From Micromonosporaceae bacterium (GTDB lineage Bacteria; Actinomycetota; Actinomycetes; Mycobacteriales; Micromonosporaceae): a stretch of DNA of 52,334 nt. The translations under genes were made by a program, and so were the position numbers. Shown here piece after piece: positions 4,255 to 48,806 of the stretch. How positions within the stretch are numbered: position 1 is the stretch's first letter; every line of letters begins with the position of its first letter. The stretch is from contig WHSM01000001.1 of assembly GCA_009380105.1 (NCBI GenBank), forward strand, positions 1 to 52,334, written 5' to 3'. Below the pieces are notes generated by a model, which saw nothing but the letters and a program-made list of their open reading frames with translations, was not told the DNA's origin and ran no database searches.

Positions 4255-4431
4255 AGAGCGACCGACGTTTCGATTCCATGACTGAGGTGTGGCAACTCGC
4301 GCAAGGGTCTTCCATCCTGAGTTACTGAGCGGTTAACTTACCCCTCAGTCAGGTTCTGGTTCCCTTAGCCAAGGCGGCGGGCGATAGTCGGCGAGGAACG
4401 TGTCCGGTCAAGGCCGACCGGGGAACTACCG

Positions 4432-5484
4432 GTGGGAGGAGCCCAGTTGGGCGTCGAGGTGACCGTCGAAGGGCTGACCAAGTCCTTCGGCAGGCAGTTG
4501 ATCTGGGGGGATGTGAGCCTCACCCTTCCCGCGGGTGAGATCTCGGTGCTGCTCGGCCCTTCCGGCACCGGCAAGTCCGTCTTCCTCAAGACGCTCGTCG
4601 GGCTGCTCAAGCCCGAGGCGGGCTCGATCTGGATCCGCGACAAGGACCTTCCGAAGCTCTCCGAGCACGACCTGTACGAGGTCCGCAAGCTGTTCGGCGT
4701 GCTGTTCCAGGACGGCGCGCTCTTCGGGTCGATGACCCTCTACGACAACATCGCGTTCCCGCTGCGCGAGCACACTAAGAAGTCCGAGCGCGAGGTGCGG
4801 GACATCGTCATGGAGAAGATGGAGATGGTCGGTCTCCTCGGCGCCGAGAAGAAGCTGCCGGGTGAGATCTCCGGAGGCATGCGCAAGCGCGCCGGTCTGG
4901 CCCGCGCGCTGGTGCTCGACCCCGAGATCATCCTCTTCGACGAACCGGACTCCGGCCTGGACCCGGTGCGGACGGCGTACCTGAACCAGTTGATCGTCGA
5001 CCTGAACCAGCAGGTCGAGGCGACGTTCCTGATCGTCACCCATGACATCAACACCGCGCGCACCCTGCCCGACAACATCGGCCTGCTTTACCACAGGCAC
5101 CTGGCGATGTTCGGGCCGCGCGAGATGTTGCTCTGCTCCGAGGAGCCGGTGGTCCGGCAGTTCCTCAACGCCCAGCGGGTCGGGCCGATCGGGATGGCCG
5201 AGGAGAAGGACGCCGACGAGCTCGCGGCGGAGGCCGAGTCCGGGCAGGAGATCCCGCCGCTGCCCCCGGTGCCGGTGCAGCTTCCGCCCTCCAACGGCCT
5301 TCCGCGCCGTACCCAGCGGCCACCGGGCGAGTGGTGCCGGCAGAACGGCGTCACGCCGCCGCCCGGCTCCTTCGAGGGCGTGGACTGGACCGTCCCGGAC
5401 GAGGGCACGGTGTACTCCAGCCGTTACGCGCAGCCCGTCGACGGCGACCAGGACACGGTGACGCTGCGCCGGAGAGAGGGCTAG
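4432..5484 (+). CDS. mkl: Mce-system ABC ATPase (Mkl/MceG, MlaF-like) with Pro-rich C-terminal extension
   Basis: Walker A GPSGTGKS, ABC signature ISGGMRKRAGLARAL, Walker B ILFDEPDSGLDP, H-loop VTHD. It directly precedes two YrbE permeases. GTG start. Confidence 0.85.
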   Translation: MGGAQLGVEVTVEGLTKSFGRQLIWGDVSLTLPAGEISVLLGPSGTGKSVFLKTLVGLLKPEAGSIWIRDKDLPKLSEHDLYEVRKLFGVLFQDGALFGSMTLYDNIAFPLREHTKKSEREVRDIVMEKMEMVGLLGAEKKLPGEISGGMRKRAGLARALVLDPEIILFDEPDSGLDPVRTAYLNQLIVDLNQQVEATFLIVTHDINTARTLPDNIGLLYHRHLAMFGPREMLLCSEEPVVRQFLNAQRVGPIGMAEEKDADELAAEAESGQEIPPLPPVPVQLPPSNGLPRRTQRPPGEWCRQNGVTPPPGSFEGVDWTVPDEGTVYSSRYAQPVDGDQDTVTLRRREG

Positions 5485-5487
5485 TCG

Positions 5488-6261
5488 ATGGCCAATCCGG
5501 TCACCGCGGGCTTGGCGCAGGCAGGCGGCTTCTTCGCCTTCGCTCTCGACACCATCCGGGCGTTCCCGCGCCGCCCCTTCCAGTTCCGGGAGCTGGTGCA
5601 GCAGGCCTGGTTCATCGCCAGCGTGTCCATCCTGCCCGCCGCGCTGGTCGCGATCCCGTTCGGCGCGGTGATCTCGCTGCAGCTCGGCTCGCTGACCCGG
5701 CAGCTCGGCGCGCAGTCCTTCTCCGGCGCGGCCAGCGTCCTGGCCGTCGTGCGGGAGGCCGGCCCGATCGTGACCGCCCTGATCATCGCCGGGGCCGGCG
5801 CGTCGGCGATCTGCGCGGACCTCGGCGCCCGCAAGATCCGGGAAGAGCTGGACGCGATGCAGGTGCTCGGCATCGACCCGATCCAGCGCCTGGTGGTGCC
5901 CCGGGTGATCGCCAGCATGTTCGTGGCGGTGCTGCTCAACGGCCTGGTCAGCGTGGTGGGCGTCGCCGGCGGCTATTTCTTCAACGTGATCATGCAGGGC
6001 GGCACGCCGGGCGCGTACCTCAACAGCTTCCAGGCTCTCGGCCAACTCGCCGACCTCGTGTCAGGCGAGATCAAAGCGCTCTGTTTCGGCGCCATCGCGG
6101 CGCTGGTCGCCTGCTATCTGGGCATGAACGCCAAGGGAGGTCCCAAAGGCGTGGGTGACGCGGTGAACCAGACCGTGGTCTTCGCCTTCATGCTGCTGTT
6201 CGCGGTCAACTTCATCATCGTGGCGATCTACTTCCAGGTCGTTCCGCAGAAGGGGAGTTGA
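5488..6261 (+). CDS. yrbEA: Mce-system permease, YrbE/MlaE family (A subunit)
   Basis: 257-aa polytopic membrane protein. REAGPIVTALIIAGAGASAICADLGARKIREELDAMQVLGIDP is the characteristic MlaE/YrbE motif. Confidence 0.85.
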   Translation: MANPVTAGLAQAGGFFAFALDTIRAFPRRPFQFRELVQQAWFIASVSILPAALVAIPFGAVISLQLGSLTRQLGAQSFSGAASVLAVVREAGPIVTALIIAGAGASAICADLGARKIREELDAMQVLGIDPIQRLVVPRVIASMFVAVLLNGLVSVVGVAGGYFFNVIMQGGTPGAYLNSFQALGQLADLVSGEIKALCFGAIAALVACYLGMNAKGGPKGVGDAVNQTVVFAFMLLFAVNFIIVAIYFQVVPQKGS

Positions 6262-7091
6262 CCGTGGCTGACATGAACACGATCTACCGCAAACCGCTCT
6301 CCATGCTGGACGACCTGGGCGATCAGCTCTCCTTCTACAGCCGGTCGCTGGCGTGGACCCCGCGCACCATCCGCCGCTACAAGCGTGAGGTCCTCCGCCT
6401 GCTCGCCGAGGTGAGCTTCGGCACCGGCGCGCTCGCGGTGATCGGCGGCACCATCGGCGTGATCGTCTTCATCACCTTCTTCACCGGCACCGAGGTGGGC
6501 CTGCAGGGCTACCAGGCGCTGCAGCAGATCGGTTCCAGCGCGTTCACCGGGTTCGTGTCGGCGTACTTCAACACCCGCGAGATCTCCCCGCTGGTGGCGG
6601 GCCTGGCGCTGTCGGCGACAGTCGGCGCCGGCTTCACCGCGCAGCTCGGCGCGATGCGGATCAACGAGGAGGTGGACGCGCTGGAGGTCATGGGCCTGCC
6701 GTCGCTGCCCTTCCTGGTGACCACCCGCATGATCGCCGGGTTCGTCGCGGTGATCCCGCTGTACGTGATCGCGCTGCTCTCCAGCTACGCCGCGACCCGC
6801 ATGATCGCCACCAGCTACTTCGACCAGTCGACCGGCACGTACGACTACTACTTCACCCTGTTCCTGCCGCCGGAAGACGTGTTGTGGTCGTTCTTCAAGG
6901 TGCTGGTGTTCAGTGTTTTGGTGATCCTGATCCACTGCTACTACGGTTACACCGCGTCCGGCGGTCCGGCGGGGGTCGGGATGGCCGTCGGCCGCGCGGT
7001 GCGGCTGGCGATCGTCGCGATCAATATTGTTGACTTCTTCCTCAGTCTCGCGATCTGGGGCACCACGACGACAGTCCGGATCGTGGGGTAG
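6258..7091 (+). CDS. yrbEB: Mce-system permease, YrbE/MlaE family (B subunit)
   Basis: 277 aa. REISPLVAGLALSATVGAGFTAQLGAMRINEEVDALEVMG motif. The start overlaps the previous stop (TTG 6258; GTG 6264 or ATG 6273 also possible). Confidence 0.85.
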   Translation: MTVADMNTIYRKPLSMLDDLGDQLSFYSRSLAWTPRTIRRYKREVLRLLAEVSFGTGALAVIGGTIGVIVFITFFTGTEVGLQGYQALQQIGSSAFTGFVSAYFNTREISPLVAGLALSATVGAGFTAQLGAMRINEEVDALEVMGLPSLPFLVTTRMIAGFVAVIPLYVIALLSSYAATRMIATSYFDQSTGTYDYYFTLFLPPEDVLWSFFKVLVFSVLVILIHCYYGYTASGGPAGVGMAVGRAVRLAIVAINIVDFFLSLAIWGTTTTVRIVG

Positions 7092-7099
7092 GGGCGACT

Positions 7100-8149
7100 G
7101 TGGCGATACAAGGACGTGGCTACGTAGGCCCGCTCATCAAGCTGGGCATCTTCACCCTGATCACCGCGATGGCGACGCTGTTCCTGGCCAGCACCCTGAC
7201 CACCTTCGGGGCCGGCGACGGGCACACGTACAAGGCGCGGTTCACCAACGTGGCCGGGCTGCTCGCCGGCGACGACGTGCGCATCGCCGGGGTGCAGGTC
7301 GGCAAGGTCACCGACATCGCGCTGGTCGACAACCGGCTCGGCCAGGTCACGTTGGTGGTCGACGACTCCATCAGGCTGCCGAAGACAGTCGAGGCGAAGA
7401 TCCGCTACCGCAATCTCGTGGGCCAGCGCTACATCTCGCTCACCGAAGGCCCCAGCAAGCACGGCCGGCTCGCGCCGAACGGCACCATCCCGCTCAGCCA
7501 GACCGAGCCGTCGCTGGACCTGACGCTCCTGTTCAACGGGTTCCGCCCGCTGCTGACAGCGCTGACGCCGAAGGACATCAACAAGTTCTCGTACGAGATC
7601 ATCCAGGTTCTCGAAGGCGAAGGCGGCACCGTGGAGAGCCTGCTGTCGCGCACCGCCTCGCTGACCAACACCCTCGCCGACCGCGACGAGGTGATCGGCC
7701 GGGTGATCGACAACCTGAATCAGGTGCTGGGCACGCTGAACGCGCGGGACAAGCAGTTGGCCGAGACCATCAGCCAGTTGCAGGCCTTCGTCTCCGGGCT
7801 GGCCAAGGACCGCAAGGCGATCGGCGAGTCGTTGGGCCACATCGGCACGCTCGCCGACGAGACCTCGAAGCTGCTCAAGGACGCGCGTCCGGCGCTGAAG
7901 GCGGACATCGCTCAGCTGCGCAAGCTCGCGGTCACGCTCAACGCCAACAAGTCGGTGATCAACAACACTCTCGCCAGGCTGCCGGTGCATTTCGCGACCA
8001 TGAACCGCGTCGCCTCGTACGGCTCCTGGTTCAACTTCTTCCTCTGCGACTGGGATGGCCGGGTCAACGTCCCCGGCGCCGGTCACGTCACCCCGGCGAC
8101 CTTCCACTCGCAGCAGGCCCGCTGCCAGCGCACCGGGGCGGGTGACTAG
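7100..8149 (+). CDS. MCE-family (MlaD-domain) substrate-binding protein 1
   Basis: N-terminal TM helix, then the MlaD fold signature YKARFTNVAGLLAGDDVRIAGVQVGKVTDI...IRYRNLVGQRYISL, then a long helical region. Confidence 0.85.
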   Translation: MAIQGRGYVGPLIKLGIFTLITAMATLFLASTLTTFGAGDGHTYKARFTNVAGLLAGDDVRIAGVQVGKVTDIALVDNRLGQVTLVVDDSIRLPKTVEAKIRYRNLVGQRYISLTEGPSKHGRLAPNGTIPLSQTEPSLDLTLLFNGFRPLLTALTPKDINKFSYEIIQVLEGEGGTVESLLSRTASLTNTLADRDEVIGRVIDNLNQVLGTLNARDKQLAETISQLQAFVSGLAKDRKAIGESLGHIGTLADETSKLLKDARPALKADIAQLRKLAVTLNANKSVINNTLARLPVHFATMNRVASYGSWFNFFLCDWDGRVNVPGAGHVTPATFHSQQARCQRTGAGD

Positions 8150-9199
8150 ATGAAACCGTTCCGGGATCGGAGCCAGGTCGTCATCGGGGCGATCTGCGTC
8201 GGCCTCCTGGTGGCCGGCGTGCTGGCAGCGTTCCAGTTGGAGAACATCAGCGGGATGTTCGGCACGAAGTACCGGGCGGCGTTCGCGGACGCGAGCGGGC
8301 TGACCACCAGGGACGAGGTGCGTATCGCCGGCGTGAAGGTCGGCAAGGTCACCAAGATCGGCCTGGCGGGCTTCAAGGAGAGCACAGGCAGGCAGCGCCC
8401 GTACGTGGAGGTGCAGTTCCGAGTCGACGGCGACGTGTCGATGGGGACGAAGACCAAAGCGGTGATCGCGGTCAAGACCCTGGTGGGCCAGAAGTACCTG
8501 GCGTTGCAGCCGGCCGGGCCGGGTGAGATGTCGGGCGGCGACCTGATCCCGCGCTCGCGGACCGTGGCGCCGTTCGACGTGGTGGACGCGTTCAGCTCCT
8601 TGGCGGAGACCGTCACGAAGATCGACGTCGAGCAGCTCAAGAAGGCGCTGACGGTGCTGTCGGACACCTTCGAGGACACCCCGCCGCACGTGAAGTCGTC
8701 GCTGGAAGGTTTGTCGCGACTGTCGAAGACGGTCGCGAGCAGGGACAAGCAGCTGCAGCTGCTGCTCAAGCGCACCCAAGGGGTGACGAAGGTCCTGGCG
8801 GAGCGCAGCGGCGAGTTCCGCAAGCTGGTCAAGGACGCCAACCTGCTGCTGGACGAGGTGAGCAAGCGCAAGGACGCGATCCACCGGCTGCTCGTCGCCA
8901 CGGATGACCTGGCCACGCAGCTGTCCGGCGTGGCGAAGGACAACCGCAAACAGTTGGGCCCGGCGCTCAAGCAGCTGCGCGGGGTCGCCGAGATCCTGCG
9001 CAAGAACAAGACCAACCTGGAGAAGACCCTCAAGAACATGGGCCCGTACATCAAGGCGTTCACCAACGTCGTCGGCAACGGGCGCTGGTTCGACAACTAC
9101 ATCGACGGCCTGCTCCAGCCGTACACGCCCAGCGGCCCGACGGTGGTGCCTGAAGGCGGCTCGCGACCCGGCTCCGCCGCGAAGGAAGGTGGGCGGTGA
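8150..9199 (+). CDS. MCE-family substrate-binding protein 2
   Basis: TM helix plus YRAAFADASGLTTRDEVRIAGVKVGKVTKI...VKTLVGQKYLAL. The ATG abuts the previous stop codon. Confidence 0.85.
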   Translation: MKPFRDRSQVVIGAICVGLLVAGVLAAFQLENISGMFGTKYRAAFADASGLTTRDEVRIAGVKVGKVTKIGLAGFKESTGRQRPYVEVQFRVDGDVSMGTKTKAVIAVKTLVGQKYLALQPAGPGEMSGGDLIPRSRTVAPFDVVDAFSSLAETVTKIDVEQLKKALTVLSDTFEDTPPHVKSSLEGLSRLSKTVASRDKQLQLLLKRTQGVTKVLAERSGEFRKLVKDANLLLDEVSKRKDAIHRLLVATDDLATQLSGVAKDNRKQLGPALKQLRGVAEILRKNKTNLEKTLKNMGPYIKAFTNVVGNGRWFDNYIDGLLQPYTPSGPTVVPEGGSRPGSAAKEGGR

Positions 9200-10446
9200 T
9201 GGCGGCCACAGGCAGCGGCGTGGTCGCCGGATTCGCGCGCAGCAAGCTGGCGGTCGGTCTGGCGATCGCGGTGGCGTTGGTGCTCGCAGCCGTGGCAGCG
9301 GTCTTCCTGCTCGACCTGCGGGCCGGCGGCCGTACGGTCACGGCGCACTTCACCCGCACCGTCGGCATCTACCCCGGCTCCGACGTGCGCATACTCGGCG
9401 TCAAGGTGGGGGAGATCGAGGAGGTCGTCCCGCGGGGGAAGACCGTGCGCGTCACGATGAACTACTCCACCGAGTACCAGGTCCCGGTGGACGTCAAGGC
9501 CATCGTCGTGCCGCCCAGCCTGGTCTCCGACCGGTACATCCAGCTCGCGCCTGTGTACAAGGGCGGCCGCGAGCTGGCGAACCACGCGACGCTCTCGAAG
9601 AGCCGCACCGTGGTCCCGCTCGAGCTGGACGAGGTGTACTCGTCGCTGGACGAGCTCGGCCGGGCGCTCGGCCCCGAGGGCGCCAACTCCACCGGTGAGC
9701 TCTCCCGGCTGCTCAAGACCGAACGGAAGAACCTGGAAGGCAACGGCGAGCAGCTCGGCAAGACCCTGTCCGACTTCTCCAAGGCGCTGGACACGCTCGC
9801 CAGCGGCCGCAAGGATCTGTTCGGCTCCATCAGCAACCTGCAGAAGTTCACCAAGGTGCTGGCGGACAGCGACAAGGAAGTGCGCCGCTTCAACAGCAAA
9901 CTCGCCTCCGTCTCCAAGCAGCTCTCGGCGGAGCGGGACGAGTTGTCCGGGGCCCTGCGCAGCCTCGCCAAGGCGCTGGGGCACGTGACGAAGTTCGTGC
10001 GGGACAACCGCAAGGAGCTGGTCAAGAACGTCGACCTGCTCACTGACGTCACGTCCTCGCTGGTCAAGCAGCAGTCGGCGCTGATCGACGTGCTGGACTT
10101 CGCTCCTGTGGGCGCGTCGAACCTGGCGCTGTCGTACAACCCGCGCTCCGGCACCATCGACGCCAGGGACACCCTGATGGGGCCGTACGATCCCGCGTCG
10201 TTCGTGTGCTCGCTGATGGTGCACGTGCTGCCGACCGACGACATCCCGCAGGCCTGCTTCGACCTGGCGCAGCGCCTGCACGACGGTGGCGCGCAGCTCA
10301 CGCCCGAGCTGGGCAAGCTGCTCGGGCTGTCGGTGCCGACCCCCGGCCCGAAGGGCGGCTCCGACAAGAAGAAGGGCCCGCTCCCCAGCGGGGAGTCGCA
10401 GTCGAGCGATCCGACGTTCGGCGGCATTCTGGGAGGCTCACGATGA
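9196..10446 (+). CDS. MCE-family substrate-binding protein 3
   Basis: TM helix plus VTAHFTRTVGIYPGSDVRILGVKVGEIEEV...PSLVSDRYIQLAP. GTG 9196 or ATG 9199 overlaps the upstream stop. Confidence 0.85.
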   Translation: MMAATGSGVVAGFARSKLAVGLAIAVALVLAAVAAVFLLDLRAGGRTVTAHFTRTVGIYPGSDVRILGVKVGEIEEVVPRGKTVRVTMNYSTEYQVPVDVKAIVVPPSLVSDRYIQLAPVYKGGRELANHATLSKSRTVVPLELDEVYSSLDELGRALGPEGANSTGELSRLLKTERKNLEGNGEQLGKTLSDFSKALDTLASGRKDLFGSISNLQKFTKVLADSDKEVRRFNSKLASVSKQLSAERDELSGALRSLAKALGHVTKFVRDNRKELVKNVDLLTDVTSSLVKQQSALIDVLDFAPVGASNLALSYNPRSGTIDARDTLMGPYDPASFVCSLMVHVLPTDDIPQACFDLAQRLHDGGAQLTPELGKLLGLSVPTPGPKGGSDKKKGPLPSGESQSSDPTFGGILGGSR

Positions 10447-11702
10447 TCTCGAGATTGCGTGGACTCCACCGACTCCGCAAGACGTGCGTCGCCTTCCTCG
10501 CGGCCGTCATGGCGTTGACGTTCGGCCTGGCCGGCTGCTCGAAGGACGGCGGCTCGGCGATCCCGCTGCCCGGCGGAGCGCCTCGCGGCGACTACTTCAC
10601 GATCACGGCCGAGTTCGACGATGTCCTCGACCTGGTGCCTGAGGCGTCGGTGAAGGTGAACGACGTCTCGGTCGGCAGCGTGGAGCGGATCTGGCTGCGC
10701 GGCTGGAAGGCGCGGGTCGCGCTGCGGATCGACAAGTCCGTCACGTTGCCGGACAACGCGATCGCGGCGCTGCGGCAGACCAGCCTGCTGGGCGAGAAGT
10801 TCGTCGCCCTGGACCCGCCGGAGCGCGGCAAGTCGTACGGGCGGCTCAGCGACGGCGATCTGATCCCGCTTGCTCGCACCAGGCGGAGCACCGACATCGA
10901 AGAGGTGTTCTCGGCGATGGCGATGCTGCTCAACGGCGGCGGACTGGCCGAGCTGCGGACCATCAACCGGGAGATCGGCAAGGCGCTCCACGGGCGCGAA
11001 GCCGATGTGAAGAAGACCTTGAAGGAGCTCAACCGCTTCGTCGGCGGCCTGGACGACCAGAAGAAGGACATCGTCCGCGCCATCGACGCGATGGACAAGC
11101 TGTCGGCGCGACTCGCCAAGGACCGCGGCAAGGTGGCCAAGGCGCTGGACTCGTTGGGCCCCGGTCTCAAGACGCTCGCGCAGCAGCGCAAGGATCTGGT
11201 GGCGATGCTCACCTCGTTGAAGAAGCTCGGCAAGGTGGGCACGAAGGTGATCAGGGCGAGCCGGGACGACACCGTGTCGGTGCTGCGCGACCTGCAGCCG
11301 GTGCTGACGGAGCTGGTGAAGGCCGGCGACGAGGTGCCGAAGCGCCTCTATTACCTGCTCACGTTCCCGGTCCCGCCGGAGGCGTTGAAGGCGATCCACC
11401 CGGACAAGACCGATCCGCGTCAACAGTTCGTGAACCTGAGCATTACGCTCGACCTCGACGCCAAGGTCATCCTGCACAACCTGACCTGCAATCCGGAGCC
11501 GGCGCCGGATGAGCCTGGCAGCCCTCCGCCGAGCGACCCTGACGACCGGTCCTCGGACCAGCCGTGTATAGGCGGTCACGAGCCAGAGTCGCCGGTGAAG
11601 CCTGGCGCGCCGGTGGCTCCGAGGGTTCCGGGCCTGCCGGGCGAGGCAGATGGCCAGCGGGGCGGTCTGGCCGACCTCCTCATAGGGGGCCTGACACGTT
11701 GA
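10443..11702 (+). CDS. MCE-family lipoprotein (MceE/Lpr-like), 4th and last MCE protein
   Basis: MISRLRGLHRLRKTCVAFLAAVMALTFGLAGCS carries a lipobox (LAGC). MlaD signature FTITAEFDDVLDLVPEASVKVNDVSVGSVERI...TSLLGEKFVALDPP. ATGA overlap with the upstream gene. The longer ORF start at 10206 is rejected. Confidence 0.8.
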   Translation: MISRLRGLHRLRKTCVAFLAAVMALTFGLAGCSKDGGSAIPLPGGAPRGDYFTITAEFDDVLDLVPEASVKVNDVSVGSVERIWLRGWKARVALRIDKSVTLPDNAIAALRQTSLLGEKFVALDPPERGKSYGRLSDGDLIPLARTRRSTDIEEVFSAMAMLLNGGGLAELRTINREIGKALHGREADVKKTLKELNRFVGGLDDQKKDIVRAIDAMDKLSARLAKDRGKVAKALDSLGPGLKTLAQQRKDLVAMLTSLKKLGKVGTKVIRASRDDTVSVLRDLQPVLTELVKAGDEVPKRLYYLLTFPVPPEALKAIHPDKTDPRQQFVNLSITLDLDAKVILHNLTCNPEPAPDEPGSPPPSDPDDRSSDQPCIGGHEPESPVKPGAPVAPRVPGLPGEADGQRGGLADLLIGGLTR

Positions 11703-11855
11703 TCCCGCGTCGTGCCCTGCGGCCCCGCCTGACGGTGGCTGCGGACGCGACGTGTGCTGTGTCCGGGTGACCCGGTTCTGACGGCGGGTGCCGTGTGTCG
11801 ACGCAGCGTGTGTTGAATGGGAGTGCATGATGACGGAAAGTAGCGAGGAGAGGAG

Positions 11856-12515
11856 GTGCAGCGCGTGATGGCGACTCGGCTGCCCCGCTCCGGCGGGTCC
11901 GGTCGCGGGGCCCGTTCCGGCGGCCCCGCTCGGCCCGCCCGTGCCGCTGGCTCGCGCAGCTCCGGCCGCAGACCTGAATCGGCCCGCGCCAGGCTGCCCA
12001 AGAAGCCGGATCCGTTCCGGCGTGAGCGCACGACATGGCTCGCCGTCAGCGTGGTGCTGACCCTGTTGCTCCTCGCCTCCATGGGCTTCGCCGGCTGGTG
12101 GGGCTACGACTGGTACGAGCAGCGGCAGGTCCGCGAGAGCCACAAGACCGCGGTCGCGGCCGCCCGCCAGACAGTGGTCGACTTCTTCTCGATCAGCGGC
12201 GACAGCGTCGACCGGGACGTGGAGCAGGTGATCCAGGGCGCGACCGGCACGTTCAAGGAAGAGTACGAGGCCGGCAGGGCGGAGCTGCGCACCGCTGTGA
12301 AAGAGAACAAGGTGAAGTCCGAGGGCAAGGTGCTGCGTGCTGGCCTGGTCAGCGGTGACAGCGACTCGGCGACGGTGCTGGTCGCGGCTGACGCCAACGT
12401 CAGGAACGCGAACTCGCCCAAGGGGCGCAAGGTGCATTACCGGGTTCAGGTCGAGATGTCGTACGACAAGAAGAGCGAACGCTGGTTGGTCGCCGACCTG
12501 AAGTTCGTCGGATAG
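11856..12515 (+). CDS. Mce-associated membrane protein (Mas-like)
   Basis: Arg-rich N-terminus, one TM helix (WLAVSVVLTLLLLASMGFAGWWGY), then a C-terminal domain typical of Mas proteins encoded downstream of mce operons. Start is GTG 11856 or ATG 11868. Confidence 0.7.
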   Translation: MQRVMATRLPRSGGSGRGARSGGPARPARAAGSRSSGRRPESARARLPKKPDPFRRERTTWLAVSVVLTLLLLASMGFAGWWGYDWYEQRQVRESHKTAVAAARQTVVDFFSISGDSVDRDVEQVIQGATGTFKEEYEAGRAELRTAVKENKVKSEGKVLRAGLVSGDSDSATVLVAADANVRNANSPKGRKVHYRVQVEMSYDKKSERWLVADLKFVG

Positions 12516-12535
12516 CGCGGGAGTTCACCAAGACG

Positions 12536-13717
12536 ATGGCGAGATATGTGCCCAGGGCGCTGCGTGGTCGCTCCGCGGACGGCCCGGAACCCACGGAGGA
12601 GTTCGCAGCCCGGCGACGGGAGGCGGAGAACGCCGCGGAGTCCGCGTCCGAGCCGGTGTCCGGCTCCAGCGCTGACGACGGCGACGCGACGGGGAACGAC
12701 GACGCGACGGCGAACGACGACGAGGCGACACCGAAAGACGGCGACGCGACGGCGAAGAACGGCGACCGCGCCGCCGCCCGGCGGCGGCGTCCGCAGCCGC
12801 GAGCGGCTGCGTCCGACTCCGCGCCGGCCGCTGATGACGCTGACGGCGCAGCGGAGGACGTTGACCCGGCTGAGGGGCAGGACGTCCCCGAGCGCGACGC
12901 GGAGCGTGCCCCCGAGCCCGACGAGCCAGACGCGGACGTCGAGCCCGAGGCAGACGACAAGCTGGACGCGGAGGACGAGGACGTCGAGCCCGAGGCGGAC
13001 GACGAGCCCGAGGACGAGGACGCCGAGCGCGAGAAGCCCAGATCGGGACGGATCGGCGCAGCCGCGGGGCGCGCCAAGCGCGGCCGGTCCACGTCCGACG
13101 ACGCGGCGGGCAGGACCTCGGGCGCGCGCGGCCCGGCAGGTCGCAAGGTGGCGGCGCCGCGCGCCCGCATGAGCCGCCGGGCTCGGGAAGCCGAGGCGGC
13201 GGTCGCGCGGTTGCGCCGCACCGCGGCCGCCATCGGCGTCTGGGCGCTGATCTTCGCGCTGCTGGCCGGCGGAGCGTACTACCTCAAGAGCAGCGCGGAG
13301 GCCACTGCCCGGGCGGACAGGGAGGCGACGGCGGCGGCCGCCGCTGCCGCCGAGGCGATCTTCTCGTACGACTACCGCTCATTCGACGACAGCGTGGCCA
13401 ACGGCCTGGCCTTCACGACCGGGGATTTCAAGAAGGAGTACCGCAAGACGACCGGGAGCCTGAAGGCCACTGCTGTGAAGGAGAAGGCCGTGGTGCGCGC
13501 CAACGTGAAGTTGATGAGCGTGGCTGACCGGCCGGCCGACTGCGGGGAGGACGCGGCGGAGTGCGTCGAGGTGCTCCTGTACGTCAACCAGTTCCGGACC
13601 AACGCGAACATCAAGGGTGAGAAGGTGGATCAGAACCGGGTGGTCCTGACCATGGTCCGGATCCGCGACGAGAAGACCGGCCACGACTGGTTGGTCCGGG
13701 ACGCGCTGGCGATCTGA
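12536..13717 (+). CDS. Mce-associated membrane protein (Mas-like) with ~230-aa acidic low-complexity N-terminus
   Basis: TM helix AAIGVWALIFALLAGGAYYL, then AIFSYDYRSFDDSVANGLAFTTGDFKKEYRKT..., a Mas-type domain paralogous to 11856-12515. The N-terminus is Asp/Glu/Ala-rich with repeats. Confidence 0.7.
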   Translation: MARYVPRALRGRSADGPEPTEEFAARRREAENAAESASEPVSGSSADDGDATGNDDATANDDEATPKDGDATAKNGDRAAARRRRPQPRAAASDSAPAADDADGAAEDVDPAEGQDVPERDAERAPEPDEPDADVEPEADDKLDAEDEDVEPEADDEPEDEDAEREKPRSGRIGAAAGRAKRGRSTSDDAAGRTSGARGPAGRKVAAPRARMSRRAREAEAAVARLRRTAAAIGVWALIFALLAGGAYYLKSSAEATARADREATAAAAAAAEAIFSYDYRSFDDSVANGLAFTTGDFKKEYRKTTGSLKATAVKEKAVVRANVKLMSVADRPADCGEDAAECVEVLLYVNQFRTNANIKGEKVDQNRVVLTMVRIRDEKTGHDWLVRDALAI

Positions 13718-30719: not shown

Positions 30720-31385
30720 ATGGATAGGCAAGTCAAAGGCATTCTGGGCGCCAAGCTCGGCATGACGCAGATCTGGGACGAGAACAACCACGTCGTCCCG
30801 GTGACTGTGGTGCAGGCCGGGCCGTGCGTCGTCACCCAGGTGCGCACGGCCGACAAGGACGGCTACTCCGCCGTCCAGCTCGCGTTCGGCGCAATCGACC
30901 CGCGCAAGGCCACCAAGCCGCTGACCGGCCACTTCGAGAAGGCCGGCACAGCGCCGCGCCGCCACGTCGTGGAGCTGCGCACGACCGACGCGAGCGAGTA
31001 CGAGTTGGGCTCCGAGGTCACGGCGGAGGCCTTCGAGTCCGGTCAGCTGGTGGACGTCACCGGCAGGACCAAGGGCAAGGGCTTCGCGGGTGTGATGAAG
31101 CGGCACGGCTTCCACGGTCTGCGCGCCTCGCACGGTGTCGAGCGCAAGCACCGCTCTCCGGGCTCCATCGGCGGCTGCGCGACCCCGGGCCGGGTGTTCC
31201 GCGGCCAGAAGATGGCTGGTCGGATGGGCGGCGTGCGTCACACAGTGCAGAGCCTGACCGTGCACGCGGTGGACACCGAGAACAACCTGCTGCTGATCAA
31301 GGGCGCCGTGCCTGGCCCCAAGGGCGGGCTGGTGCTGGTGCGCACTGCGGCGAAGGCTCCAGCCGGCAAGGGCGGTGCGGCATGA
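30720..31385 (+). CDS. rplC: 50S ribosomal protein uL3
   Basis: 221 aa from ATG 30720. [33 protein letters not shown]...[10 protein letters not shown]. Confidence 0.95.
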
Positions 31386-32563
31386 CAGGGACAGCGACCG
31401 AGGCGCTGGCGCCGGTGCGGGTCGACGTGGTGGACGCCGAGGGCGAGCCTGCCGGCACGGTCTCCGTGCCGGGCGAGATCTTCGACGCCCAGGCGAACAT
31501 CCCGTTGATGCACCAGGTGGTGGTGGCCCAGCTGGCCGCCGCACGCCAGGGCACCCACAAGACCAAGACCCGCGGCGAGGTCGCCGGCGGCGGCAAGAAG
31601 CCGTACCGCCAGAAGGGCACCGGCCGCGCCCGTCAGGGCTCGATCCGCGCGCCGCAGTTCGCCGGCGGCGGCGTGGTCCACGGCCCTGTGCCGCGCGACC
31701 ACAGCAAGAAGGTGCCGAAGAAGATGAAGGCGGCCGCCCTGCGCGGCGCCCTCTCCGACCGGGCGCGCGACGGCAGGATCCACGTGGTCTCCGCGTTGGT
31801 CGACGGTGAGACCCCGTCGACGAAGCAGGCCATCGCGGCGCTCACGGCCCTCGTGGAGACCCGGCGCGCGCTGGTGGTGCTGGACCGCGAGGACGAGCTC
31901 AACTGGAAGAGCCTCCGCAACGTGCCGACGGTGCACCTGATCACCGCGGACCAACTGAACACGTACGACGTGCTCGTCAACGACGACCTCGTGTTCACCA
32001 CGGCGGGGCTGCGGGCCTTCCTCGGTGCCGAGCTGGAGATCACTGAGGCCAAGCCGAAGAAGAAGGCCGTCGCCAAGAAGGCCGGGAAGGCGGACGAGGC
32101 CAAGAAGGCTGACAAGGCTGACAAGGCCAAGGACAAGGCCGAGAAGGCCACGTCGGACAAGGCTCAGAAGGCAGCGCCCAAGAAGGTCGAGAAGGCGGCG
32201 CCGAAGAAGGCCGAGAAGGCGGTGCCGAAGAAGGCCGCCAAGGCGGACTCCGAGGCGCCTGCTGACGAGGCCAAGCCGGCCAAGAAGGCCGCCGCGAAGA
32301 AGAGCGGCGCCAAGAAGGCCGCGGCGAAGGTCGAGGCGGAGCTCGGGCCGTACTCGGGATCTGTGATCCCGCCGCCGGACGGCTCCGTGCCTGACGGTTA
32401 CCCGATCAAGGGCAACGAGCAGTCGGGGCTCTACCACGAGCCGGGCAGCCGTCACTACAAGCAGACCAAGGCCGAGTTCTACTTCGCCACGGTCGATGAC
32501 GCCAAGGCGGCCGGCTTCAACGCGCCTGGCGCCAAGGACGACGGCGAGGAGGGTGAGAAATGA
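31382..32563 (+). CDS. rplD: 50S ribosomal protein uL4 with ~175-aa C-terminal extension (Lys/Ala-rich linker plus terminal module)
   Basis: ATGA overlap with rplC. uL4 core includes [25 protein letters not shown] and ends near residue 215. The frame continues to residue 393. The rplW ATG overlaps the stop. Confidence 0.9.
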
Positions 32564-34115: not shown

Positions 34116-34628
34116 ATGCCAACTACGGGTGGCGCGCCAACGCTACCGGGCGCCAGAGCGGTGGCGCGCTTCGTGCGCGTAACGCCGATGAAGGCGCGCC
34201 GTGTGGTCAACCTCATCCGCGGGCTTCCCGCGCAGGAGGCGCTGACGGTGCTGCAGTTCGCGCCCCAGGCCGCGAGCGAGCCGGTCTACAAGGTGCTCGC
34301 CAGCGCGATGGCCAACGCGGAGAACAACGAGTCGCTGGACCCGGACTCGCTCCTGGTCAGCGAGGCGTACGTCGACGAGGGGCCGACGTTCAAGCGGTTC
34401 CGGCCGCGGGCCCAGGGTCGGGCGTACCGGATCCGTAAGCGGACCAGCCACATCACGGTCGTGGTGGAGAGCGTCCAGGCGGCGGCTCCGGCGCGGAAGG
34501 CGGCCAAGGCGGCGAAGGCGGCCAAGGCCGCGAGCAAGCCGAAGGCCGCCGAGGTGAGCAAGGCGTCCTCGGCGACGGCTGAGGAGACGACCGCGGCCGA
34601 GAGCACCACGAAGGAGAGTGCCGAGTAA
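34116..34628 (+). CDS. rplV: 50S ribosomal protein uL22 (Lys/Ala-rich C-terminal tail)
   Basis: 170 aa. [24 protein letters not shown]...[30 protein letters not shown], then [18 protein letters not shown]... Confidence 0.94.
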
Positions 34629-35482
34629 TGGGTCAGAAAGTTCACCCACACGGCTTCAGGCTCGGCATCAGCGCCGATTGGAAGTCCCGCTGGTACGCCG
34701 ACAAGCTGTACAAGGACTACGTCGCCGAGGACGTCAAGATCCGCAAGATGATGTCCCACGGCCTGGAGCGCGCGGGCATCTCCAAGGTGGACATCGAGCG
34801 CACCCGCGACCGGGTGCGGGTCGACATCCACACCGCGCGGCCTGGCATCGTGATCGGCCGCAAGGGCGCCGAGGCGGACCGCATCCGCGGGCAGCTCGAG
34901 AAGCTCACCGGCAAGCAGATCCAGCTGAACATCCTCGAGGTGAAGAACCCCGAGTCGGACGCGCAGCTGGTCGCCCAGGGCATCGCCGAGCAGCTCGCCA
35001 GCCGGGTCAACTTCCGGCGGGCCATGCGTAAGGCGATCCAGTCGGCGATGAAGAACCCGCTGGTCAAGGGCATCCGGGCGCAGTGCTCCGGGCGACTGGG
35101 CGGCGCCGAGATGTCCCGCTCGGAGTTCTACCGCGAGGGTCGTGTGCCGCTGCACACGCTGCGGGCGAACATCGACTACGGCTTCTTCGAGGCGCGCACC
35201 ACCTTCGGCCGGATCGGCGTGAAGGTGTGGATCTACAAGGGTGAAGTGATCCCGGGCCGGGAGCAGCCGGCCGTCGAGACCGAGCGGCGGCCTCGCCGTG
35301 AGCGGCCGCGTCGTGGGCGTTCCGGCGCCGCCGGCACCACGGCGGGCGGCACCGACGCCGGACGCGCCGCGGCGGCCGAGCGGACGGGCAGGAGCCCCAA
35401 GGGCGCTGCTCCGGAGACCGCCGAGCCGACCCCAGAAGCCAGCGCCGCCGAGACTGCTCCGGCCGCGACGACGGAGGGCTAA
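34628..35482 (+). CDS. rpsC: 30S ribosomal protein uS3 (Arg/Ala/Glu-rich C-terminal tail)
   Basis: 284 aa. [14 protein letters not shown]...KH domain...[31 protein letters not shown]. Confidence 0.95.
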
Positions 35483-48065: not shown

Positions 48066-48806
48066 ATGCCCCAGCCCACCAAGGGAGCCCGTCTCGGCGG
48101 CAGCCCTGCACACCAGCGGTTGATGCTGGCGAACCTCGCCACGTCGCTGTTCCGGCACGGCAAGATCCGGACGACCGAGACCAAGGCGAAGCGGCTGCGG
48201 CCCTTCGCGGAGCGTCTGGTCACCTTCGGCAAGCGCGGCGACCTCAACTCCCGTCGCCGGGCGATCGCCGTGCTCCGGGACAAGGAAGTCGTGCACCAGC
48301 TCTTCGAGGAGATCGCGCGCAGGTACGCCAACCGGCCAGGCGGCTACACCCGTACCACCAAGATCGGTCCGCGTAAGGGCGACAACGCTCCGATGGCCGT
48401 GATCGAGCTGGTCGAGGAGTTGGCCGTCGCCGAGCCGGAGGCGAAGCGCGCCGCGCGCAAGGCGGCGAAGGCCGACGCGGTGGCCGCGCTCGCGGGCGAG
48501 ACCGACGAGGCTGACGAGGCCGCGGCCCCGGAGGCCAAGGCCCCCGAGACCGACCTGGTCGGCGCGGACGAGGAGCCGCCGTACGGCGAGGGCAGCCACG
48601 CCCCGCTGGAGGACGACTCCCAGCCGGAAGGTTTCCCGATCAAGGGGAACGAGGACTCAAAGCTCTACCACACCACGGACAGCCCGTCCTACAAGCGGAC
48701 GGTCGCCGAGGTGTGGTTCGCGACCGAGGAGGCCGCGGAGGCCGCTGGCTTCCAGAAGCCGCCGTCGCAGCGGGACAAGGACGACTCCGAGGATTCCGCG
48801 GAGTAA
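48066..48806 (+). CDS. rplQ: 50S ribosomal protein bL17 with ~130-aa C-terminal extension (acidic linker plus the same terminal module as uL4)
   Basis: bL17 core [46 protein letters not shown]...MAVIELV ends near residue 116. The frame continues to residue 246. Confidence 0.92.

Follow-up and report, generated by a model that had tools for sequence, protein, structure and literature searches.

Matching C-terminal tails of ribosomal proteins bL17 and uL4 in a Micromonosporaceae genome assigned to the catalogued sunset domain family

Results

Two ribosomal proteins with the same C-terminal module

The rplQ and rplD genes located in the first 52,334 nucleotides of contig WHSM01000001.1 (Micromonosporaceae bacterium, assembly GCA_009380105.1; this whole stretch is referred to as the window) encode the ribosomal proteins bL17 and uL4, respectively, and both proteins end in the same C-terminal module. 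The bL17 gene lies between rpoA and truA and encodes a protein of 246 amino acids (aa). The uL4 gene (393 aa) lies between rplC and rplW, and its ATG start codon at 31382 overlaps the stop codon of rplC. The module has about 60 residues in both tails and consists of a lead-in, PYGxGS...P[DE]G[FY], followed by IKGN..S..YH....Y..T.AE..F.....A..AGF. A six-frame search with a hidden Markov model (HMM) found exactly two copies of it in the window, one in bL17 and one in uL4. The layout of both proteins is that of a normal ribosomal core, a variable low-complexity tether and a conserved mini-domain. The features are as follows:

48066..48806, + strand: rplQ, bL17 'sunset domain variant', 246 aa plus stop codon (NF051448, 337 bits; TIGR00059, 132 bits; PF01196, residues 20-116)
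48066..48419, + strand: bL17 conserved ribosomal core, residues 1-118 (Pfam/TIGRFAM; 75% mean identity, 119 homologues; aligns to solved bL17 chains)
48420..48578, + strand: bL17 tether, residues 119-171, Ala/Glu/Asp-rich and predicted to be disordered (23% mean identity to homologues)
48579..48635, + strand: bL17 sunset lead-in, residues 172-190, 19 aa (77% mean identity; short strand, predicted local distance difference test score (pLDDT) 74-85 in the model)
48636..48761, + strand: bL17 sunset core PIKGN...GFQKP, residues 191-232, 42 aa (NF051437, 80.6 bits; PF27542; pLDDT 86-91)
48762..48803, + strand: bL17 acidic C-terminal tail, 14 aa (sequence; 28% identity; pLDDT ~54 at the very end)
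31382..32563, + strand: rplD, uL4 'sunset domain variant', 393 aa plus stop codon (NF051449, 417.8 bits; TIGR03953, 224.5 bits; PF00573)
32027..32341, + strand: uL4 tether, residues 216-320, Lys/Ala/Glu/Asp-rich and of low complexity (sequence, composition)
32342..32527, + strand: uL4 sunset lead-in (20 aa) and core (42 aa; 32402-32527) (NF051437, 64.3 bits; BLASTP versus the bL17 tail, E=2e-20)
32528..32560, + strand: uL4 acidic tail, 11 aa (sequence)

Over the stretch from PIKGN to the final P, the two tails have 25 identical residues out of 42 in an ungapped alignment. The initial annotation of the window, which was made from its letters, had given the 25 identities and the absence of gaps correctly, but over a length of 41. 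BLASTP with compositional adjustment aligned the tails at E=2e-20 (34/67 identities, zero gaps), and their Smith-Waterman score was 159, compared with 26 +/- 5.1 (maximum 56; z=26) when the uL4 segment was shuffled 20,000 times. The similarity on which that annotation depended is thus far above a compositionally matched background. The P-Y...P-(D/E)-G-(Y/F) lead-in which it described is indeed common to both tails and is kept throughout the family. Its placement of the end of the bL17 core near residue 116, with an Ala/Glu/Asp-rich linker next, agrees with the Pfam scan, in which Ribosomal_L17 (PF01196) ended at residue 116, and with the linker at residues 119-171. In the same scan, PF00573 matched uL4.

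One might suspect that the tails resemble each other by chance or composition, or that a frameshift or a mis-called stop codon generated a spurious, untranslated tail, since high-GC actinobacterial proteins often have low-complexity Ala/Glu/Lys tails and long-read metagenome-assembled genomes (MAGs) do contain frameshifted pieces of such tails. This suspicion is contradicted not only by the BLASTP and shuffling statistics but also by the scores of both proteins, which exceed curated HMM cut-offs (see below), and by the conservation of the module (72-77% in the 119 homologues of bL17) while the linker drifts. Moreover, the GC content of third codon positions (GC3) stays at 0.89-0.98 across the linker, module and tail of both extensions; this unbroken signature indicates that the extensions are coding and translated. 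The chance or artefact reading, which we consider practically untenable, is refuted by the tests run.

Assignment to the sunset family

Searches with NCBIfam models assigned both proteins to classes that already have names. The bL17 protein matched NF051448, '50S ribosomal protein L17, sunset domain variant', with 337 bits over residues 1-232 (cut-off 280), and uL4 matched NF051449, '50S ribosomal protein L4, sunset domain variant', with 417.8 bits (cut-off 385). The tails alone scored 80.6 bits (bL17) and 64.3 bits (uL4) with the 'sunset' domain model NF051437, the cut-off of which is 27. The models of the ribosomal proteins proper, TIGR00059 (L17) and TIGR03953 (rplD_bact), gave 132 and 224.5 bits, respectively. 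In precomputed annotations, the Pfam family PF27542, which bears the name 'ArfC', is assigned to the window bL17 (P0246) and its homologues; the PF01196+PF27542 architecture was found in 120/120 best bL17 homologues, several of which are named 'sunset domain variant' in NCBI or UniRef. Our local Pfam copy has no model of the module, and scanning the window proteins with it detected the ribosomal cores only. Sister models for sunset variants of uS2, bL20 and ArfC are also present in NCBIfam.

The family signature [IV]KGN-x2-S-x3-H ... T-x-AE-x2-F ... A-x2-AG[FY] is present in both window copies, and all residues of the invariant columns (K8, G9, N10, S13, H17, T27, E30, F33, A39, A42 and G43) are found in both. 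The uL4 copy deviates only at the near-invariant V31, W32 and E40. It is a divergent module, with EFYF for the near-invariant EVWF and at most 64% identity to the other sampled uL4 modules. Neither module contains any Cys. The ArfC model NF051433 matched the window proteins through the module only (96 and 52 bits, cut-off 100), and the model of the ArfC N-terminal transmembrane domain, NF051455, had no match in either of them.

The bL17 and uL4 modules therefore almost certainly belong to the sunset family. That two unrelated large-subunit proteins carry one autonomous module, as was originally claimed, is borne out by the NCBIfam matches together with the BLASTP result. The module is not new: the domain and both fusion classes are already curated in NCBIfam and Pfam and named in UniRef, and our finding is a rediscovery. 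A literature search covering the sunset domain, its accessions, actinobacterial uL4/bL17 extensions and ArfC/Rv0901 retrieved no paper on the domain and no published function or solved structure of it. The role of rv0901 (arfC), a gene of the ammonia/acid-adaptation operon, was called elusive in a 2025 review (PMC12183614).

Tether and fold

Mean identity of the 119 homologues to the window bL17 was 75% in the core, 23% in the linker, 77% in the lead-in, 72% in the module and 28% in the tail, and the distance from the end of the core to the KGN motif ranged from 32 to 104 residues. Such a pattern, with a conserved module behind a drifting linker of variable length, characterises a folded domain that is attached through a disordered tether. 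In bL17, 67 residues separate the core from the 47-residue module profile; they include 20 Ala, 18 Asp/Glu and 6 Lys/Arg, which makes -0.18 charge per residue. The corresponding segment of uL4 has 120 residues, among them 33 Lys/Arg and 19 Asp/Glu. The tether of uL4, described initially as strongly basic, is thus a mixed-charge Lys/Ala/Glu/Asp segment with a modest net positive charge (+14). By generic random-coil scaling, tethers of 67 and 120 residues would reach roughly 55-75 Å (r.m.s.), or 240-430 Å when stretched out completely. The linkers of other uL4-sunset proteins are mostly acidic or neutral; of the proposed contrast between a basic and an acidic tether, the acidic bL17 part holds, but the contrast is peculiar to the uL4 of this genome and not general.

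An AlphaFold2 model of the bL17 tail was compact: three strands and one helix, preceded by a short strand in the lead-in, with a pLDDT of 86-91 in the module. In the AlphaFold2 model of a natural two-module protein, each module had pLDDT >90 and the linker <50. According to these models, the low-complexity linker ends in a small, compact domain that is predicted to fold autonomously.

Among solved structures, the only carrier of the module found by sequence is uL4 of Cutibacterium acnes (PDB 8CRX chain e), which matched the bL17 tail with E=1e-14 and the profile with E=4e-27; the C. acnes bL17 (8crx_m, 187 aa) had no match to the module by sequence. The C-terminal extension of the C. acnes uL4, of about 100 residues, is solvent-exposed and has no density in electron microscopy (EM) (PMC10085706). 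The tail being invisible in the map, the module is probably not stably docked on its own ribosome, unless it is lost from the mature protein. This observation, together with the difference between the linker (23%) and the module (72-77%) in identity, supports the early suggestion of a ribosome-displayed domain, in the form of a module that hangs on a flexible tether and is not built into the ribosome.

Host proteins and distribution

A search with the 47-residue core profile retrieved 3,993 clusters at 50% identity with E<=1e-3 and 1,441 with E<=1e-10, and many of these proteins contain tandem arrays of 2-5 copies. The host and taxon counts were taken from the best 79 loci of at least 584 matches in a genome scan. 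Nearly all of these loci (78/79) are labelled Actinomycetota, including Pseudonocardia, Kribbella, Nakamurella, Actinophytocola, Mycobacterium, Brachybacterium and Ilumatobacter/Acidimicrobiia. The best module match among the matches listed in the scan reached 83%, and the closest relatives of bL17 were those of Nakamurella, Antricoccus, Labedaea and Pseudonocardia. The sole non-actinobacterial label belongs to a uS3-sunset contig (L051, CAXMOP010000059.1) from a MAG labelled Kiloniellales (Alphaproteobacteria); either the contig is actinobacterial and was mis-binned, or the gene was transferred in a rare event.

By host, the 88 sunset open reading frames (ORFs) were divided among bL17 (36), uL4 (15), uL22 (10) and others (27). 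The other hosts include uS2, uS3, the F1-ATPase gamma subunit, a two-copy membrane pyrophosphatase and ArfC-type proteins; NCBIfam confirmed uS2, uS3, uL22, F1 gamma, pyrophosphatase and ArfC. At least five ribosomal carriers were therefore encountered (uS2, uS3, uL4, uL22 and bL17), and bL20 is a sixth according to its own NCBIfam model. The Ilumatobacter loci have one module each on uL4, uL22 and uS3 of one operon. A ribosomal carrier and a membrane-type carrier were found in the same MAG at loci L005 and L021. The module was thus confirmed to be promiscuous and mobile within one lineage, with at least five ribosomal and several membrane hosts.

Some host classes look unnamed: dedicated NCBIfam models of sunset variants exist only for uL4, bL17, bL20, uS2 and ArfC, and loci L022 (3032-4168), L051 (2795-4252), L013 (2867-4192), L032 (2-1183) and L070 (68-4144) represent uS3, uL22, F1-ATPase gamma and the two-copy membrane pyrophosphatase. 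The F1 gamma fusion was seen once, in a MAG of very low coverage, and is tentative.

Further membrane carriers are BON, fasciclin and DUF308 proteins. An ArfC-N or ArfB-like anchor was present in 35/118 sunset proteins, and 70/149 top representatives had an N-terminal transmembrane helix with Arg/Lys after it. In the proteins with N-terminal sunset copies, Arg/Lys residues and then a real transmembrane helix separate the copies from the C-terminal BON or fasciclin domain. Positive residues flanking transmembrane helices place the modules, by prediction, on the cytoplasmic side. Across the hosts, almost every module is carried by a long tether whose sequence varies.

Several variants were observed among the members of the family. 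P0164 begins with a Tat-like signal peptide. Cys-pair variants, with C-P-x-G ahead of KGN and E-[VFL]-C-F in place of EVWF, occur among P0164, P0192, P0205, P0244 and P0245, and their sequences suggest disulfide-stabilised, possibly extracytoplasmic forms. P0111, P0119, P0141, P0170 and P0214 have Ala/Gly-rich pseudo-hydrophobic segments and an Asp run between N-terminal sunset copies (e.g. GVAAAGVAGAAAVGAAALLGDDDD); these segments score as weakly transmembrane, although a second linker motif that recurs is the more probable reading. The DUF308 proteins P0130 and P0134 have six transmembrane helices; the DUF308 family includes the acid-resistance protein HdeD. An acid or proton theme can be seen among the non-ribosomal hosts (DUF308 proteins, the pyrophosphate-energised pump of L070, F1 gamma and ArfC/ArfA) in small and biased samples, and it may be coincidental.

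Short hits of 45-112 residues were considered as free-standing sunset proteins and rejected. The four ORFs that were checked, all from MAGs, look like frameshifted tails of uL22, uS2 and uL4: L007 3833-4201, L009 3971-4177, L064 3797-4174 and L075 3707-4177 overlap or adjoin one of these genes in another frame. Many of the short hits are probably such fragments. No match to the module was found by tblastn in the phage collection. Among the entries of BFVD, Gp605 of Bacillus phage G (59 residues) was 42% identical over 45 alignment columns to the module model.

Origin of the two copies

A distance of 16 kb separates the two modules in this genome, and their alignment needs no gap, which might point to recent intragenomic shuffling or gene conversion that copied one ribosomal tail onto the other. 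Yet the coding stretches of the bL17 and uL4 modules are only 69% identical in DNA and have the same third position in 24/42 codons. The window bL17 module shares 81% identity with the modules on bL17 from other genera, but 57% with the uL4 module of its own genome. The uL4 and uL22 modules of six further genomes gave a similar picture: they were 70% identical within the genome, whereas the closest module on the same host elsewhere was 70-98% identical (at least 79% for 11/12 modules). Both fusion classes are spread over actinobacterial orders. Taken as a recent exchange between rplD and rplQ, the shuffling within the lineage which had been proposed is contradicted by these comparisons, and we consider it very improbable. 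The sequences indicate that the bL17 and uL4 fusions are old and vertically inherited, with no sign of recent exchange in this genome. The module phylogeny recommended earlier for this question gave no resolved tree: modules of any two host classes are 59-72% identical, which is too conserved, and host-specific clades are poorly resolved. The comparison of within-genome with same-host identities was the informative part.

Similarity to the metal-binding domain of Ada

PF02805 (Ada_Zn_binding) matched 9/118 multi-copy sunset proteins with E<=1e-3 (best 3.2e-5). When three multi-copy members were scanned singly, the model gave 18.9-22.5 bits (gathering cut-off 23), on the sunset copies and over profile positions ~20-58; it had no hit in the window bL17, in uL4 or in the isolated modules. 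The alignment of a 201-copy sunset profile with a 28-sequence Ada profile by hhalign, the latter derived from sequences homologous to authentic E. coli Ada, had a probability of 75% (E=2.5e-5) and was confident over 18 columns, compared with 0.1% (E=0.46) in the reversed control. The first comparison, of a 25-sequence sunset profile with the single E. coli Ada, had given 7%, and 75% was reached only with broader profiles on both sides. In the extended alignment, the invariant His falls on the methyl-accepting Cys38 of Ada and Ser on Cys42, and Cys69 and Cys72 have no counterpart; none of the four zinc-ligand cysteines of E. coli Ada is kept (0/4).

With Foldseek, N-Ada (1u8b_A, 1wpk) ranked 2-3 in the PDB for two independent models (E=4.6-7.3, TM 0.22-0.43), and one BFVD match is annotated as 'Metal binding domain of Ada'. 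No match of the module models in PDB or BFVD was significant. Of the profile and structure searches that had been suggested for identifying the module, the profiles thus led to NF051437/PF27542, and Foldseek provided nothing significant. It is plausible, though unproven, that sunset is a zinc-less relative of the Ada domain; given the cysteines and the gathering score, it falls outside the Ada family.

Genomic surroundings

The window has 68% GC and a mycobacteria-like gene content and synteny (mce and mycosin genes). A type VII secretion mycosin gene lies between rplA and rplJ, and an mce-type lipid-transport operon with an Mkl/MlaF-like ATPase, two YrbE/MlaE permeases and at least three Mce proteins lies between rplL and rpoB; coordinates 756-2675 and 4369-13717 cover the mycosin and mce regions. 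The uL22 (34116-34628) and uS3 (34583-35482) of the window have long low-complexity tails (Arg/Ala/Thr/Glu-rich in uS3) without a sunset module, unlike the Ilumatobacter-type uL22 and uS3, which carry it.

Discussion

We propose, with a probability of about 0.6, that the sunset tail is a tethered, non-structural docking module. It would float on its tether off the solvent face of the ribosome and have no architectural role there. The module would capture a shared cytoplasmic partner, much as the C-terminal domain of bL12 fishes for factors, and a putative binding site is probably the patch of invariant polar residues (K/N/S/H/T/E). Several modules per ribosome and arrays of them on membrane anchors could make up a multivalent system, and such multivalency could in turn cluster ribosomes or position them relative to the partner or the membrane. 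Naming any specific ligand for the module would be doubtful at best.

Several observations weigh against this proposal. The literature search yielded no binding partner of the domain and no experiment on it. A net acidic charge, found in the module and in most tethers, speaks against generic binding of nucleic acids or anionic lipids. The two modules of the tandem protein were not packed together in the AlphaFold2 single-chain model (predicted TM score (pTM) 0.49). Given the Tat-like signal in one member and the Cys pairs in some, not every copy need be cytoplasmic. The missing EM density in C. acnes would equally fit a proteolytic loss of the tail. Finally, the link to Ada is sub-threshold throughout (22.5 versus 23 bits in Pfam, E=4.6-7.3 in Foldseek and 18 columns in hhalign).

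Instead of a shared partner, the modules might bind each other in a homotypic, velcro-like manner, ribosomes with 2-5 modules being caught by ArfC-type arrays or clustered together, for example in dormancy. The stickers-and-spacers layout with 1-5 modules, linkers of ~30-100 residues and N-terminally anchored membrane proteins would suit such binding, as would the modules on three proteins of one Ilumatobacter operon and the presence of ribosomal and membrane-type carriers in the same MAG (L005, L021). However, AlphaFold2 predicted two confident domains in the tandem protein and no confident packing of one on the other, which is a weak test, and the fusion to the rotating F1 gamma is hard to square with static cross-linking. 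On balance, we regard homotypic binding as improbable. A rather unlikely alternative is that the module has an Ada-derived phosphate-ester or metal site, the K/N/S/H/T/E patch of which senses or recruits a nucleic-acid backbone, a nucleotide, polyphosphate, a lipid head group or a metal at ribosomes and at membrane machines that handle protons or phosphate. This idea is in line with the distant resemblance of sunset to the zinc domain of Ada, in which Cys38 is aligned with His and Cys42 with Ser, and the seven invariant polar or charged residues per 47 suggest a defined site and not a greasy protein interface. The hosts F1 gamma, membrane pyrophosphatase, DUF308 proteins and ArfC (from the acid-adaptation ompATb operon) would fit as well, but this theme rests on few proteins from biased samples. 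The loss of all zinc cysteines, the net acidic character of the module and the sub-threshold homology to Ada also argue against such a site.

The docking proposal can be extended to a phylum-specific multivalent tethering, in which sunset modules would link the solvent face of the ribosome to ArfC-type arrays and to F1 gamma, pyrophosphatase and DUF308 proteins through a shared partner or through each other. The pocket would then come from a zinc-less Ada-like ancestor, and the invariant His could make binding dependent on pH or ligand. We consider this extension speculative and quite unlikely. If it were true, Actinomycetota would have a hitherto unrecognised mechanism by which ribosomes are organised or silenced, e.g. 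under acid stress or in dormancy.

The discovery value of our analysis is small, the domain and both fusion classes having been named already. The interest that is left lies in a strongly conserved appendage present on at least five ribosomal proteins and on F1 gamma, pyrophosphatase and membrane anchors across the phylum, including mycobacteria and Cutibacterium. If the partner were identified, a feature of actinobacterial ribosomes that is specific to the lineage would be explained, and probably also the role of ArfC in the acid-adaptation operon of M. tuberculosis.

A comparison with known systems helps to define the module. The C. acnes uL4 extension in 8CRX includes a sunset module just as the window uL4 does, whereas the authors of the structure saw no domain in it (PMC10085706). 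The window proteins share the layout of core, tether and C-terminal module with the proteins described by NF051448, NF051449 and NF051437, from which they do not differ materially; the window uL4 is a divergent copy on an unusually Lys-rich tether. Mycobacterial ArfC (Rv0901, ompATb/arfABC operon) belongs to the same domain family (PF27542, 'ArfC'), and ArfC-type proteins have 1-5 copies. They are, however, membrane proteins anchored by their N-terminal domain (NF051455), whereas the carriers in the window are ribosomal. PRK12279 (NF008917), '50S ribosomal protein L22/unknown domain fusion protein', weakly matched 4/118 sunset proteins and locus L013, alongside the L22 core. Although sunset proteins score far under its cut-off (76 versus 526 bits) and the window uL22 has no sunset module, these matches show that a fusion of L22 to an 'unknown domain' was recorded long ago.

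The N-terminal domain of Ada (PF02805; 1ADN, 1U8B, 1WPK) may resemble sunset in its predicted strand-strand-strand-helix order over about 40 residues with a helix ending in AGF. In contrast to Ada, sunset has no zinc-thiolate methyl acceptor because all four zinc-ligand cysteines are missing, and it is a C-terminal domain on a tether and not the N-terminal domain of a DNA-repair protein and regulator. A functional parallel may be bL12 (L7/L12), the C-terminal domain of which is a small fold on a flexible hinge off the ribosome surface, usually invisible in maps, that captures ligands from solution. Located at the GTPase-associated stalk, bL12 binds translational GTPases. The sunset module is likewise a small folded domain on a flexible tether off the ribosome, but it is unrelated to bL12 in sequence, is attached to solvent-side proteins far from the factor site and also occurs on non-ribosomal hosts.

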